From NCBI GenBank assembly GCA_964605725.1, contig CAZSDQ010000003.1, positions 1 through 46,264 of the forward strand: DNA of 46,264 bases, read 5' to 3'. Source of the stretch: an uncultured Candidatus Saccharibacteria bacterium (GTDB taxonomy: Bacteria > Patescibacteriota > WWE3 > UBA101185 > UBA10185). The position numbers and the translations under genes are program-made. Under the pieces are notes generated by a model that ran no database searches, was not told the DNA's origin, and saw only the letters and a program-made list of their open reading frames with translations. Shown piece after piece: positions 29,614 to 41,172 of this stretch. Positions within the stretch are counted from its first letter, which is position 1, and the number at the start of each line of letters is the position of its first letter.

Positions 29614-29690
29614 GGGCTCGTAGCTCAGTCGGTTAGAGCGTTGCATTCACATTGCAAAGGTCTCAGGTTCGAATCCTGACGGGCCCACCA
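29614..29690 (+). tRNA. tRNA-Val(CAC)
   Basis: GGGCTCG/CGGGCCC acceptor, GCTC/GAGC D stem, TTGCA/TGCAA stem with loop TT-CAC-AT, TCAGG-TTCGAAT-CCTGA T arm, A73 and encoded CCA. Confidence 0.96.
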
Positions 29691-29925
29691 ATTAACGATT
29701 TGAGCTAAAGAAAGGATTCGAATGCCGCAACCGCGACGGCGGTGAGGCGGGGTCGACTGGCGCATCAGCAGATGCGAACAGGTGACCGAATCCTGACGGG
29801 CCCACCAATTAACGATTTGAGCTAAAGAAAGGATTCGAATGCCGCAACCGCGACGGCGGTGAGGCGGGGTCGACTGGCGCATCAGCAGATGCGAACAGGT
29901 GACCGAATCCTGACGGGCCCACCAA
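29671..29925 (+). repeat. Tandem 117-bp repeat (about 2.2 copies): last 20 nt of tRNA-Val plus a 97-nt GC-rich structured spacer
   Basis: GAATCCTGACGGGCCCACCA at 29671, 29788 and 29905; the two 97-nt spacers are identical. Confidence 0.95.
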
Positions 29926-39160: not shown

Positions 39161-39216
39161 AGGATTATTTTATCAGATTTGGGTGTAAAGTTTTGGGAAA
39201 AATAAATTCGAGGTTT

Positions 39217-39257
39217 AAAAAATGAGGGGTAGTTAAAAAAAGCTTTTAAGCTACCCC
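39217..39257 (-). terminator. Intrinsic terminator
   Basis: Minus strand GGGGTAG...CTACCCC stem followed by TCATTTTTT, just after the 39266 stop. Confidence 0.55.
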
Positions 39258-39265
39258 GTGAGTGA

Positions 39266-39445
39266 TTAGAAAATTGCAATTAACAATACAACTAACACGA
39301 GCAGAATTCCGAAAATAAGAGCATAGACTAACATCGTGCTTTCCCCTGGAAGAGAATCCGGCTTGATCTTCCGTTCTTTTTCCTCTAACTCATAATCAAT
39401 TTTTGCGTATTCTTCGTCAGAACAATTACGAGCTGTGTTTAACAT
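39266..39445 (-). CDS. 59-aa small protein with a C-terminal TM helix
   Basis: AAGGAG Shine-Dalgarno 8 nt before ATG 39445 (MLNTARNC...), so this internal start is preferred to the track's 39529. Confidence 0.6.
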   Translation of the reverse strand: MLNTARNCSDEEYAKIDYELEEKERKIKPDSLPGESTMLVYALIFGILLVLVVLLIAIF

Positions 39446-39547
39446 TTTTCTCTCTCCTTTTGAATAATGGTTTTTAGCAATTATATCAAAAAAGAAGGCA
39501 ATCAGACTTGCGAAATTAGAAAATTTCATCTGACTGCCTTTGATTGG

Positions 39548-39754
39548 TTACCTTGGGTAGCCCTTTTTTGGGGTTGCCATTGGTTTCGGTTTATTGGCTT
39601 CAATTTCTTTTTTTTGAACAAACCCAATAAAAGCGCAAAAACCGATTCCGATTAATGGCCACCACCACCAACTGGTCTCAGTGGCGGACATAAAAATTAC
39701 TACGCAAACCAAAATACCAATCTCCCATCTTTGCAATCTTTCATTTTTTTTCAT
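39548..39754 (-). CDS. 68-aa two-TM small membrane protein
   Basis: GAGGAG Shine-Dalgarno before the ATG; two hydrophobic segments separated by WWWWP. Confidence 0.65.
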   Translation of the reverse strand: MKKNERLQRWEIGILVCVVIFMSATETSWWWWPLIGIGFCAFIGFVQKKEIEANKPKPMATPKKGYPR

Positions 39755-39877
39755 CTCTTCTCCTCTTTGAGATTAGTTTTTATTTTATTGTTATCATTAT
39801 ACCCTATAGTCATATATTTGTCCATAGGAATTAAGTTGAATATTTATAAGGGTTTGGGAATTGATATTTAGCTTTAT

Positions 39878-39919
39878 TGGAGCCGAAGGTGGGAATTGGG
39901 AACTCAGCCTAACGTTTAC
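39878..39919 (-). pseudogene. 3' half (42 nt) of a split tRNA-Thr, with a damaged T arm
   Basis: GTAA-ACGTT-AGGCT-GAGTTCCCAATTCCCAC-CTTCGGC-T-CCA; complementary to the 5' half at 40317-40349. Confidence 0.85.
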
Positions 39920-40149
39920 TATTTTGTTTCTAAAATAGATATTCTTTTATCGTGATTATCTATTTTTTCTTTGTTCATCTTATACATATCTCCGTAAAAA
40001 CCTATTGTATTTTCTAAAGAAATTAGTGATGCTGTGTGATTGTCTAGTTTTGAATAAACCTCGTTAAAATTTTCATTTGTTTCATTTCTGAAATCTCTGA
40101 ATTCTTTTTGAAGATTAATTATCAAACCTGATAAATTTTCATTAGGCAT
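39919..40149 (-). CDS. 76-aa coiled-coil hypothetical protein inside the split tRNA
   Basis: Open frame with heptad-like pattern; TAATAT 6 nt before the ATG; its TAG stop overlaps the first base of the tRNA 3' half. Confidence 0.7.
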   Translation of the reverse strand: MPNENLSGLIINLQKEFRDFRNETNENFNEVYSKLDNHTASLISLENTIGFYGDMYKMNKEKIDNHDKRISILETK

Positions 40150-40218
40150 GGTTGGATATTAGTTTATTTATTTTATAAAAACAAGATGGTATTTCTATTG
40201 ATAATAGAGGTAATGTGT

Positions 40219-40293
40219 TGGAGCCGGTGGTCAGAATCGAACTGACAACCTAACGCTTACGATGCGCTTGCTCTACCATTGAGCTACACCGGC
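40219..40293 (-). tRNA. tRNA-Thr(CGT)
   Basis: GCCGGTG/CACCGGC acceptor, GCTC/GAGC, AGCGC/GCGTT with loop AT-CGT-AA, GTCAG-TTCGATT-CTGAC, U73 and CCA. Confidence 0.95.
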
Positions 40294-40316
40294 AAAAGAT
40301 ACTGGCCGCAGCGTCT

Positions 40317-40349
40317 GATACGCTTGCTCTACCATTTAGCCACTTCGGC
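40317..40349 (-). pseudogene. 5' half (33 nt) of a split tRNA-Thr
   Basis: GCCGAAG-TG-GCTA-AATGGTA-GAGC-A-AGCGT-ATC; ends at anticodon position 34. Confidence 0.85.
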
Positions 40350-40416
40350 GTATAAAAATAAACTTTCGTTTAATATCTTACCTTGGCGATCAAAATAATT
40401 CTAAATTTATTAATAA

Positions 40417-40475
40417 GCTCAATCGCAAGGTTCTCGAGCGAAGCGAGATGGTTCTTCCCATTGAGCCACTATGGC
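40417..40475 (-). other. tRNA 5'-end fragment extended into a GC-rich hairpin element
   Basis: GCCATAG-TG-GCTCAATGG, then TCTCG-CTTCGCT-CGAGA, closed by ATTGAGC pairing with GCTCAAT. Confidence 0.7.
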
Positions 40476-40515
40476 AGATAAAATTTCGACTATTAAAACC
40501 TAATATATCTTTATT

Positions 40516-41172
40516 TTAATACTCAACCTCGTAATTATTACGTATTTTACTATATTCGCAAAACTTACACGAAGGGTTCATTTCAGGAACAGGTCCTTCC
40601 AACAGATCATCAACTTCTTTAATAAACTTGAAAAAAGTATCTTCGTCTGTAGGAATTTCCATCCACTTTGGAGGGAAATTAACCCTGGAAGTTTCATCCA
40701 TAAAATCAACATTTTCAGGATAGAAAATAAGTAGCCCCATTTTTGTAATCTTTATAGGTGTACTCGAAACAGGGTTTTCAAGTGCAAATTTATATGAAAA
40801 CAGCTGGGTCTTGTATTTTTCAATTTTCTCTTCTGATGGCAGTGATATTTTAAGGTCGACGAGAGTATAGGTACCATCAGGATTTTTACATAAAAGGTCG
40901 TATTTACCTTTTATATAGCAAGACGTATTTGGAATAGTTTTTGATTCCACAAATATTTCTTGATTAACCACAGTACAATCAGGTAAATCCACAGAGAGCG
41001 TTATTAAATTTTTCCCTATTAATTTTGTTTGAACCATTGAATTTAAAGTTGTAAAAACACCCGGGAATGGGGTAGATGGTCTTGGGATATTTTCTTTTAC
41101 CTTCAAGTAAAAACAGCGTTTACATTCTTCGTATAAATACGCAAAATCAGAAGGTGATAATTTATAATTCAT
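40516..41172 (-). CDS. PD-(D/E)XK nuclease superfamily protein (Cas4/RecB-like, stand-alone)
   Basis: LSPS...ECKRC, KGKYDLL, LVDLK, C-terminal CKFC. Confidence 0.8.
   Translation of the reverse strand: MNYKLSPSDFAYLYEECKRCFYLKVKENIPRPSTPFPGVFTTLNSMVQTKLIGKNLITLSVDLPDCTVVNQEIFVESKTIPNTSCYIKGKYDLLCKNPDGTYTLVDLKISLPSEEKIEKYKTQLFSYKFALENPVSSTPIKITKMGLLIFYPENVDFMDETSRVNFPPKWMEIPTDEDTFFKFIKEVDDLLEGPVPEMNPSCKFCEYSKIRNNYEVEY

Follow-up and report, generated by a model that had tools for sequence, protein, structure and literature searches.

The stretch of DNA analysed here, which we call the window, is 46,264 nt long. Read along its minus strand, the locus of interest consists of a 5′ piece of a tRNA-Thr gene (piece B), a 22-nt spacer, an intact tRNA-Thr(CGT) gene, an open reading frame (ORF) of 76 aa and a 3′ piece of a tRNA-Thr gene. 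A preliminary description of this DNA had located the two pieces, the intact gene and the ORF, and its positions for them are exact. Upstream of piece B lies a third tRNA-Thr-like 5′ piece (piece A, 40475-40457), which is truncated in the D loop. The features are as follows.

40457 to 40475, minus strand: 5′ part of piece A, GCCATAGTGGCTCAATGGG, the first 19 nt of a tRNA-Thr-like gene, found by pattern scan.
40417 to 40457, minus strand: core of piece A, GAAGAACC(A)TCTCGCTTCGCTCGAGAACCTTGCGATTGAGC, with a tRNA-like layout of a 5-bp stem and a 7-nt loop.
40350 to 40416, minus strand: rest of the A module, a 67-nt AT-rich spacer.
40316 to 40349, minus strand (40349-40317 in the preliminary description): piece B, GCCGAAGTGGCTAAATGGTAGAGCAAGCGTATC, a pseudogene 5′ half with positions 1-35 of a GCCGAAG-type tRNA-Thr(CGT).
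40294 to 40315, minus strand: spacer of 22 nt, GACGCTGCGGCCAGTATCTTTT, from piece B to the intact gene.
40219 to 40293, minus strand: intact tRNA-Thr(CGT), GCCGGTG allele, CCA encoded (ARAGORN; Rfam tRNA, 67.1 bits).
40150 to 40218, minus strand: conserved region of 69 nt between the tRNA and the ORF.
39919 to 40149, minus strand: the 76-aa open reading frame.
39878 to 39919 (39918 without the last base of the ORF), minus strand: 3′ piece, GTAAACGTTAGGCTGAGTTCCCAATTCCCACCTTCGGCTCCA, positions 36-76 of a tRNA-Thr(CGT) plus CCA.
39796 to 39824, minus strand: promoter-like site TGGACA-N17-TATAAT, with 11/12 consensus matches, kept in all relatives.

The nested gene at 40293-40219 is presumably functional and the sole working tRNA-Thr(CGT) gene here, and the pieces that flank it are dead remains of older gene copies. 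When the two halves of the intact gene were compared with about 92,000 positions on both strands, their best non-self matches were the two pieces (28/33 and 29/42), and the next-best matches reached 19/33 and 23/42, so the matches to the pieces are far beyond chance. Joined, the pieces make 75 nt that ARAGORN names tRNA-Thr(cgt), with 7/7 pairs in the acceptor stem, 5/5 in the anticodon stem, 3/5 in the T stem and 3 pairs in the D stem. The three compensatory differences from the nested gene that had been reported are real and fall at pairs 5-68, 6-67 and 31-39. The pieces pair with each other because both have the GCCGAAG acceptor that is common in the clade. At positions 29, 41 and 42 they carry C, G and T, which are the bases of the present GCCGGTG gene.

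The break had been placed between C34 and G35. Relatives put it after G35 (ATCG, then GACGCT): G35 is the last base of piece B, and the first base of every 3′ piece is T36 or A37. In the 5′ piece of the window, position 35 has changed to A. The G that had been given to the 3′ half is the final base of the TAG stop of the ORF, directly at which the 3′ piece begins. In all lineages, then, the junction lies between G35 and T36 in the anticodon loop, a canonical crossover sublocation, and the window's pieces are genuine halves of genes split at one nucleotide. Piece B is identical at 31/33 positions to the intact GCCGAAG allele of relatives, and its two substitutions are C13 to A, which breaks a D-stem pair, and G35 to A. 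The 3′ piece, which has the acceptor strand CTTCGGC and is identical in L071 and L074 (labels of this form denote the related loci or lineages that we compared, all of them from metagenome assemblies), is much better preserved than the relics in the closest relatives (33/42, with the last 19 nt perfect), and such preservation speaks more for a recent event than for an old relic. Its T arm is destroyed (GAGTTCCCAATTCCCAC). The lesion had been noted correctly, but it may be a scar instead of the outcome of gradual decay: the 3′ half of relatives has a 63-nt insertion in the T loop, which hits the same region.

To see what a filled and an empty site look like, it is best to compare the relatives, whose tRNA-Thr(CGT) alleles are distinguished by their acceptor, anticodon and T stems. 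The preliminary description called for an empty site with a continuous GCCGAAG...CTTCGGCTCCA gene, and such a gene stands at this locus in L017, L021, L022, L027, L039, L043, L045, L046 and L070. Two of these, L043 and L046, have the order A module, intact GCCGAAG tRNA, ORF. L064-L067 have the order A module, GCCGAAG positions 1-35, 22 nt, GCCGGTG tRNA, 17 nt, GCCGAAG positions 37-76, ORF, and the two halves are identical to the intact GCCGAAG allele at 34/34 and 39/40 positions. L043/L046 and L064-L067 form a clean pair of empty and filled sites. The insert in L064-L067 is 114 nt long and is without the ORF; the 3′ half stands 17 nt past the nested tRNA and before the ORF. The intact GCCGGTG gene of the window is identical in L064-L067, and its 3′ part is identical in L071. 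The relatives yielded no empty site for the right junction of the window itself.

A second set of alleles occurs at the same junction. In L017, L021, L039 and L045, piece B is of GCCAGAG type and is identical at 33/34 positions, by eye from the printed sequences, to the intact GCCAGAG gene of the outgroup L020; the 5′ piece and spacer are thus also found in lineages that combine a GCCAGAG-type 5′ piece with a GCCGAAG-type nested gene. L070 has a matching CTCTGG 3′ half (20/21 and 18/19), and its piece B is a chimera of alleles. The 63-nt T-loop insertions in the 3′ halves of L064 (GCCGAAG type) and L070 (GCCAGAG type) are identical at 52/63 positions, which argues that these 3′ halves have a single origin. 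In L020 the order is tRNA-Gly, ORF, 62 nt, intact GCCAGAG tRNA-Thr, membrane-gene promoter. The A and B modules themselves vary, with neither in L022, A only in L043, L046 and L068, and a duplication in L067. L074 is the sole contig with both the window's 3′ piece and an intact GCCGAAG gene, and we rejected it as proof that the two coexist: it is 676 nt long, has 1.6x coverage and ends in a GC-rich foreign amidohydrolase fragment, which makes it weak evidence.

The window is itself a recombinant, a mosaic with three or more sources. Identity to L064 is 96% in the left part, as far as the intact tRNA reaches at its 3′ end, and 91% over the ORF, and the GalU side is 97-98% identical to L021/L039 as against 89% to L064. 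The locus as a whole has the properties of a tRNA pseudogene array, namely partial copies on the same strand, variable copy number and chimeric alleles, and the relic in L022 is identical at 13/13 positions to the gene of L022 itself. Because the window is a mosaic, its two pieces probably come from different split generations and were joined by recombination; most likely they are not from one event in this genome.

The junction from the ORF stop to T36 persists as relics of 8-14 nt in nearly all ingroup lineages examined, including genomes whose GCCGAAG gene is intact. Relics resembling TAAACACTA follow the ORF stop in most ingroup lineages, this stretch being lost in L046/L047, and they are absent in the outgroups L020 and L044. 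We rejected these relics as full-length decayed 3′ halves, for past the first 9 nt their similarity to tRNA is not significant, and the DNA after the window's 3′ piece was likewise rejected as a second copy of the ORF promoter, to which it has no similarity. Piece B with its spacer has orthologues in L064-L067, L017, L021, L039, L045 and L070, and homologous spacers in relatives read GACGCTAAAGCTAGTATTTTTTT and GACACTATGGCTAGTATCTTTT. Modules measure a constant 56-57 nt (60 in L021). The spacer bears a weak resemblance to the flank upstream of B (L045, p 0.004; L064, p 0.02). As a decayed tRNA 3′ part (positions 36-76), which would make B a partial tandem copy of positions 1-57, the spacer gave alignment scores at shuffle level, and the idea was set aside.

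Piece A occurs in relatives with the acceptor alleles GCCAGAG, GCCAGGG, GCCGAAG and GCCGGTG, while its junction is unchanged. The A core shows few substitutions across 10 lineages in which the neighbouring intergenic DNA does not align, and in every lineage a distance of 124-126 nt separates the start of A from that of the following tRNA. A hairpin of -19.1 kcal/mol (z -1.65) is predicted for the core, which has no Rfam match. The core was discarded as a structured RNA: its sequence is conserved, yet covariation was seen in 0/17 predicted pairs.

The 76-aa ORF has 25 homologues, in which the C-terminal 55 aa are near-invariant. The family has heptad repeats in variable number and is a strongly conserved gene of the clade. 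Its AF2 model is a single long helix (pLDDT 94) with no PDB match, searches of Pfam, PHROGs and NCBIfam returned coiled-coil noise only, and homologues at E<1e-10 amount to only 13 clusters among 1.84 billion representatives. The ORF had been taken as cargo of the insert, which does not agree with its standing as a clade gene, some of whose homologues have no tRNA nearby. In an outgroup the ORF is followed downstream by an intact tRNA-Thr. The 69-nt region before the ORF is conserved in all relatives, including behind the tRNA-Gly of L020, and holds TTGTTT-N17-TAATAT; because this motif ends 6 nt before the ATG, it is a putative promoter of a leaderless mRNA. It is absent from the list produced by our consensus promoter scan. 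The TGGACA-N17-TATAAT site past the 3′ piece serves downstream genes for small membrane proteins and marks the right edge of the tRNA/ORF locus.

The insert has no integrase, as the preliminary description had said, and none lies in the rest of the 46-kb window; the scan used Pfam/NCBIfam on 26 of the larger ORFs of the window together with precomputed Pfam calls for the remaining genes in loci that span it. The ORF scans of the window returned housekeeping genes and no recombinase or transposase, and neither a circular form nor a donor element was found. IMG/VR viral contigs gave no match for the A core, the T-loop insertion, the GCCGGTG tRNA or the ORF family. The insert has no target-site duplication, and its two ends share no att-core direct repeat, with an overlap of at most about 3 nt. 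In L064, spacer and tail contain an 8-nt perfect inverted repeat (TATCTTTT/AAAAGATA), which was reached by 29/5000 shuffles, and in L070 they contain a compensated inverted repeat (TATTTTTT/AAAAAATA), reached by 540/5000 shuffles; the window has no tail after its nested tRNA. An upstream PD-(D/E)XK gene was considered as a homing endonuclease. It is only Cas4-like, below the family cut-off and without a solved relative, and it is present in every ingroup locus that reaches upstream, regardless of the state of the tRNA locus, so the homing idea was dropped.

The reading that we prefer, at a probability of about 0.55, is that new tRNA-Thr copies repeatedly inserted within the gene after G35, that the pieces then recombined and that the window is one of the recombinants. 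A new tRNA-Thr(CGT) copy with a 22-nt leader would land in the resident gene after G35, and such a landing would apparently have occurred at least twice, with the GCCGAAG allele entering a GCCAGAG gene and the GCCGGTG allele later entering a GCCGAAG gene. The target would be left unrepaired, so that B would remain upstream, where it would probably be transcribed within the leader of the new gene, and the 3′ part would remain downstream. The direct tRNA repeats that result would let homologous recombination, within and between strains, delete, duplicate, convert and re-assort the pieces. The window would then have A, B, the spacer and the GCCGGTG tRNA of the L064 type, and the ORF, the 3′ piece and the variable region from another lineage, with a GalU side like that of L021/L039. 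We infer that insertion, either site-specific or illegitimate, created the primary junctions, rather than paired deletions. The recurrence could be an illusion, as one ancient split followed by gene conversion from the resident allele could give the same allele patterns. At its core the preliminary description stands: DNA with a complete tRNA-Thr(CGT) of its own does break up the anticodon loop of a tRNA-Thr(CGT) gene, and the target was not repaired. Of the single mini-island that it proposed, the splitting by the window's GCCGGTG-type tRNA is borne out by L064-L067, but one recent event and an ORF inside the insert are not.

A stronger claim, which we hold to be doubtful, is that a family of tiny tRNA-Thr(CGT) cassettes with neither integrase nor promoter homes to the bond between G35 and T36 of its own isoacceptor gene, kills the resident copy and so replaces alleles repeatedly. 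The incoming cassette would assume the transcription of the resident copy, and behind the turnover there could be a trans-acting recombinase and conflict with tRNA-targeting nucleases or phages.

Comparably doubtful is the proposal that one cassette of about 400 bp, made up of 22-23 nt, the GCCGGTG tRNA, the promoter and the ORF, split the GCCGAAG gene in the window's own lineage, with L064-L067 arising from the same product through duplication and then loss of most of the cassette ORF. It would explain why the pieces abut and sum to 75 nt, why their acceptor (7/7) and anticodon stems (5/5) pair, why they share the hybrid stem AGCGT/ACGTT and why the 3′ piece is so well preserved, with its terminal 19 nt perfect. 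The 17-nt tail of L064 is weakly like the 3′ end of the ORF (p 0.03), and the lower identity of the ORF than of the upstream block between the window and L064 (91% against 96%) would fit paralogous ORF copies. However, that tail is closer, by eye, to ORF ends of the L045/L070 type than to that of the window, the partner 3′ half in L064-L067 precedes the ORF, and the junction of ORF stop and T36 is found across the clade, even with an intact GCCGAAG gene. A single cassette also sits poorly with a backbone whose source switches between the tRNA and GalU, and with the lack of any trace of a second promoter or ORF past the 3′ piece.

Insertion is dispensed with altogether if two ordinary tRNA-Thr genes once flanked the ORF and the window's pieces are remnants of both neighbours, which we think unlikely. 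The 5′ part of the downstream gene would have been deleted, and B would be a 57-bp tandem duplication of the upstream flank and the first 35 nt of the gene. The intact tRNA-Thr of L020, 62 nt past the ORF, does sit in the slot of the window's 3′ piece. Moreover, B is limited to a subclade whose GalU is at least 89% identical to that of the window, and the relic after the ORF is found more widely; B therefore looks younger. The steady module lengths (56-57 nt, 60 in L021) count in favour as well, and a tandem duplication predicts the likeness of the spacer to the flank upstream of B (p 0.004 in L045 and 0.02 in L064), but that likeness is also expected if the incoming unit came from a homologous tRNA-Thr locus. 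Two independent events would be needed at the same phosphodiester bond of a 75-nt gene, that between G35 and T36, and L064-L067 would go unexplained, with the halves of one allele around a 114-nt insert and the site intact in L043 and L046.

It is very improbable that the split gene still works, whether through a 397-nt intron (group I or protein-spliced) or through trans joining as in Nanoarchaeum, so that the cell has two tRNA-Thr species. ARAGORN does call the joined halves tRNA-Thr(cgt), and the minimum-free-energy fold of the whole region in L064 pairs the outer halves with each other and has a leader-trailer stem that closes the nested tRNA. Against this, Rfam at E up to 10 found no group I or other intron and no other non-tRNA family at 39600-40600, the insert is full of tRNA and ORF, and the intron mode of ARAGORN made no call that joins the halves. 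No T arm can form in the 3′ piece, a D-stem pair is broken through C13A, and B carries disabling changes in relatives (GG18-19 to AA in L070, GAGC to GATC in L017 and L021); the acceptor strand of B in L070 is unpaired with the 3′ half of that genome.

Finally, an arrangement chimerically assembled from co-occurring strains, the artefact that the preliminary description named as a danger, is scarcely credible, because despite a repeat-rich locus and samples with several related strains 851 bp of the locus are identical in 13 loci from independent JGI, ENA and NCBI assemblies, made by different pipelines and with contigs of up to 44 kb. In the relatives, all of them metagenome assemblies, repeats could have mis-joined co-occurring strains. 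Metagenomes in which these lineages occur include JGI 3300010351, 3300026159 and 3300009681 and ENA ERZ795063 and ERZ15186021.

We thus have a bacterial tRNA gene nested in its own dead copies, with inserts of 114-397 bp and several alleles rotated through one slot. If the process is site-specific, it would represent a new and very small mobile unit and a route by which tRNA alleles could sweep CPR populations. If it is not, the locus is still a clear natural example of how recombination between tRNA-derived repeats produces arrangements easily mistaken for split tRNA genes or for tRNA genes with introns. Such mimicry bears on tRNA annotation in metagenome-assembled genomes and on debates about the origins of split tRNA genes.

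tRNA genes are classic landing sites of mobile DNA, and the usual rule is repair through the missing 3′ part: since classical elements carry the 3′ part of the tRNA, the gene is restored and a 3′ direct repeat is left. Islands and prophages in tRNA genes, with tRNA fragments at attL and attR, were reportedly described by Williams in 2002. Replacement of a whole tRNA gene is, to our knowledge, known only from a few full-size phages. In archaea, split, permuted and multi-intron tRNA genes have functional pieces, a splicing endonuclease and bulge-helix-bulge motifs. The locus resembles them in having halves broken in or near the anticodon loop and interruptions in the D and T loops, but it belongs to a bacterium (Patescibacteria), and its pieces have disabling mutations.

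Group I introns interrupt the anticodon loops of bacterial tRNAs, sometimes with an ORF (10.1101/2020.01.27.920355). Here too a bacterial tRNA gene is broken within its anticodon loop of 7 nt, but the insert has no ribozyme core and contains a tRNA gene, and the exons have decayed. tRNA-gene islands and prophages mark attL and attR with tRNA fragments (PMC9897764). Our locus is like them in that its anticodon-loop junction is a known integrase crossover sublocation, partial copies mark past events and a second type of junction lies in the T loop. Elsewhere in the window, a 117-nt tandem unit behind tRNA-Val (29670-29925) has a T-loop junction. It differs from classical islands in its lone upstream 5′ fragment, its halves that abut without overlap and its supply of a whole gene.

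A further parallel is with temperate Rhizobium phages like vTRX32-1, which insert into a tRNA gene that then stays broken and bring along an entire replacement tRNA (PMC8631192). These phages are 42-45 kb long, encode integrases and are bordered on each side by a 12-bp att repeat (PMC8631192). The units here are of 114-397 bp, without an integrase or att duplication, and the events are stacked at one locus; a phage-type test of this locus gave no PHROG match and no viral contig match. Like the vTRX32-1 phages, however, the locus has a split target that was left unrepaired, and its insert includes an entire tRNA gene of the same amino acid specificity whose sequence differs from that of the target.

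As the preliminary description had reported, the minus strand of the window carries two halves of a tRNA-Thr gene around a complete tRNA-Thr(CGT). Alleles are named here by their 5′ acceptor strand, and the locus reads as follows.

40475-40417 (-): piece A, the first 19 nt of a tRNA-Thr-like gene plus a 41-nt conserved core
40416-40350 (-): spacer between A core and piece B, 67 nt, AT-rich
40349-40316 (-): piece B, positions 1-35 of a GCCGAAG-type tRNA-Thr(CGT)
40315-40294 (-): spacer between B and nested gene, 22 nt
40293-40219 (-): nested intact tRNA-Thr(CGT), GCCGGTG allele
40218-40150 (-): conserved region from tRNA to ORF, 69 nt
40149-39919 (-): ORF, 76 aa
39918-39878 (-): 3′ piece, positions 36-76 plus CCA, beginning at the ORF stop codon

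The nested gene is the sole tRNA that ARAGORN and Rfam find at the locus. When the halves are joined, ARAGORN calls a tRNA-Thr(cgt) whose T arm is unable to form and whose D stem is one pair short. No other stretch of the window resembles the tRNA as the two pieces do (28/33 and 29/42; the runners-up reach 19 and 23). An assembly artefact was rejected because the same 851 bp are identical across 13 independently assembled loci. The host is a Patescibacteria chromosome with LexA, UvrABC, mur/fts genes, ribonucleotide reductase and IleRS, and no integrase or transposase was found in the 46,264-nt window.

We compared the window with syntenic loci from many metagenomes and MAGs, which comprise a PD-(D/E)XK gene, the tRNA locus, the ORF, small membrane-protein genes and GalU.

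Related lineages (L numbers): arrangement of the tRNA locus and GalU nucleotide identity to the window
L021, L039 (97-98%), L017 (94%), L045 (about 89%, partial GalU match): A, B (GCCAGAG allele), spacer, intact GCCGAAG tRNA, ORF
L027 (91%): intact GCCGAAG tRNA
L064-L067 (L064 about 89%, whole GalU-side block): A, B (GCCGAAG), spacer, intact GCCGGTG tRNA, 17 nt, GCCGAAG-allele 3′ half, ORF; A and B modules duplicated in L067
L070: B, spacer, intact GCCGAAG tRNA, 13 nt, 3′ half of GCCAGAG allele, ORF
L046 (85%), L068 (about 82%, whole GalU-side block), L043: A module, intact tRNA, ORF
L022 (85%): intact GCCGAAG tRNA, ORF
L020 (outgroup, 76%): tRNA-Gly, ORF, 62 nt, intact GCCAGAG tRNA-Thr

In all lineages A starts 124-126 nt, and B 56-57 nt (60 in L021), ahead of the next tRNA start. 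The stretch between ORF and GalU (window 39180-39915, minus strand) is hypervariable, with different small membrane-protein genes even in relatives whose GalU is 97-98% identical, and the TGGACA-N17-TATAAT promoter ahead of these genes is conserved despite the gene differences. In some strains otherwise identical to the window (L008 11228-11799, L012 10990-11773), gene calling splits the 292-aa GalU gene into two short ORFs; it may be broken there, or the split may reflect read errors. In L016/L017, genes with RVT_1 and bAvd domains (1-611) lie about 5 kb ahead of the tRNA locus, in a stretch that the window does not share; a reverse transcriptase (RVT_1) with bAvd is a pair typical of a diversity-generating retroelement.

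The empty site sought in relatives was found in L043 and L046, which have an intact GCCGAAG gene, and L064-L067 hold the matching filled site. There an insert of 114 nt (22 nt, a complete GCCGGTG tRNA and 17 nt) follows G35 of the GCCGAAG gene, and compared with the intact allele the 5′ part is identical at 34/34 positions and the 3′ part at 39/40, with T36 alone missing. The conserved ORF promoter region comes directly after the 3′ part, the same as after the intact gene elsewhere, and the insert contains no ORF. By this comparison, L064-L067 are the cleanest example of an anticodon-split tRNA gene with a replacement gene inside the insert. The window's left side, as far as the nested tRNA's 3′ end, gives one continuous alignment of 96% identity with L064 and L065, so its B, spacer and GCCGGTG gene are orthologous to the L064-L067 event. 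The earlier proposal of one mini-island that split the gene and brought in both a replacement tRNA and the ORF is partly supported: its anticodon split and replacement gene are seen in L064-L067, but a single event with the ORF as cargo is less likely for the window.

The window's B and 3′ piece, previously read as the ends of one insertion, are probably not products of one event, because B's partner in L064-L067 is located ahead of the ORF, the right junction is clade-wide and the backbone is mosaic. A relic of tRNA positions 36-44 or beyond stands directly after the ORF stop in most ingroup lineages, even those with an intact GCCGAAG gene (TAAACACTA in L022 and L065; TAAACCTTACG in L021 and L039; CAAACACT in L045 and L070); the stretch is lost in L046/L047, and the relic is absent from the outgroups L020 and L044. 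The right junction (ORF stop, tRNA 36 on) is therefore old and clade-wide. Between tRNA and GalU the window's backbone switches source: the window matches L064 at 96% identity upstream, at 91% in the ORF and at 89% in GalU, and L021/L039 at about 86-88% upstream and 97-98% in GalU, while 39915-39180 has no match in any lineage but L071. The GCCGAAG acceptor common in the clade is present in both of the window's pieces, which is why they pair with each other. Their bases at positions 29, 41 and 42 are those of the present GCCGGTG gene, as short gene-conversion tracts would give. In L074, a short low-coverage contig with a foreign DNA end that is probably a chimeric assembly, an intact GCCGAAG gene is linked to an ORF of 99% identity and to the window's 3′ piece without any difference; at 400-676 of this 676-nt contig (1.6x coverage), the 3′ tRNA piece is joined straight to GC-rich amidohydrolase C-terminus DNA.

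The ORF has 25 close homologues of 76-125 aa, in which the C-terminal 55 residues are near-invariant and the N-terminal heptad count differs. A profile search of 1.84 billion representatives gave just 13 clusters below 1e-10, and the AlphaFold model is a single long helix (pLDDT 94); searches for the protein gave no family or fold match. Since homologues are conserved and the remoter ones (WWE3, Curtissbacteria) mostly have no tRNA within 1.5 kb, the ORF is a genuine conserved clade gene and not obvious island cargo. It has no Shine-Dalgarno sequence, and TTGTTT-N17-TAATAT (window 40150-40184, minus strand) stops 6 nt ahead of the ATG, a placement that suggests a leaderless mRNA. In all close relatives the same region comes after the 3′ end of a tRNA, including tRNA-Gly in L020 and a tRNA remnant in L044.

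The best explanation, to which we give a probability of about 0.55, is that the tRNA-Thr gene was overwritten repeatedly at the same anticodon nucleotide and its pieces were reshuffled by recombination; we prefer at least two overwriting events. A serious variant is one ancient split plus gene conversion. The dead 3′ halves of L064 (GCCGAAG-type) and L070 (GCCAGAG-type) share a 63-nt T-loop insertion (L064 2846-2908; 52/63 identical), which suggests a common origin although the alleles differ, so that the appearance of recurrence may be due to gene conversion. This insertion follows TTCG of the T loop, the region of the window's T-arm lesion, and in L064 includes GCCGAAG, which is complementary to the 3′ strand of the acceptor.

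Independent deletions or duplications fare less well. B ends sharply, no similarity to tRNA positions 36-76 was detectable in the 22-nt spacer, and every 3′ piece starts at T36 or A37, which makes the two junction types meet at a single bond. A single insertion accounts for this; two independent deletions or duplications would need to coincide. The spacer is weakly similar to the flank upstream of B, which would fit an incoming unit from a homologous tRNA-Thr locus and also a 57-bp tandem duplication. In L064 and L070 the spacer's last 8 nt and the end of the tail behind the nested tRNA are perfect reverse complements (L064 2711-2732 / 2808-2824; TATCTTTT/AAAAGATA in L064 and, with a compensated change, TATTTTTT/AAAAAATA in L070), and CTAGTA/TACTAG also bracket the nested tRNA in L064; these may be terminal inverted repeats or form a processing stem. 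A functional split tRNA was rejected for disabling changes in B across lineages, a group I intron for its missing ribozyme core and decayed exons, and a phage link because none was found among viral contigs.

Two other elements joined to tRNA sequence occur in the window. The A core (40417-40457, minus strand), GAAGAACC(A)TCTCGCTTCGCTCGAGAACCTTGCGATTGAGC, is 41 nt long, fused to the first 19 nt of the tRNA-Thr-like gene and similar in layout to the part of a tRNA that runs from the D arm through the anticodon arm to the variable region. The core is near-invariant across L017, L021, L039, L043, L045, L046, L064, L067 and L068, where neighbouring intergenic DNA is unalignable, and showed neither covariation nor an Rfam match. 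At 29614-29925 (plus strand), tRNA-Val(CAC) is followed by two further perfect copies of a 117-nt unit, made of 96 nt of GC-rich sequence and the tRNA's last 21 nt (T loop to CCA), an arrangement reminiscent of att-type repeats in tandem that flank a mini insert whose junction lies in the T loop. A strong fold is predicted for the unit (-47.1 kcal/mol, z -3.8); its sole Rfam match is weak (permuted-tmRNA, E 0.058), and it has no match among viral contigs.

We classify the locus as a variant form of tRNA-targeted insertion and replacement. vTRX32-1-like Rhizobium phages interrupt a tRNA gene and carry a whole replacement along (PMC8631192), and tRNA fragments are common as integration scars (PMC9897764). 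In contrast to these cases, the insert here is tiny (114-397 bp) and comes without a recombinase or att duplication, a solitary 5′ fragment remains upstream, and several generations are stacked at one locus in a CPR bacterium.
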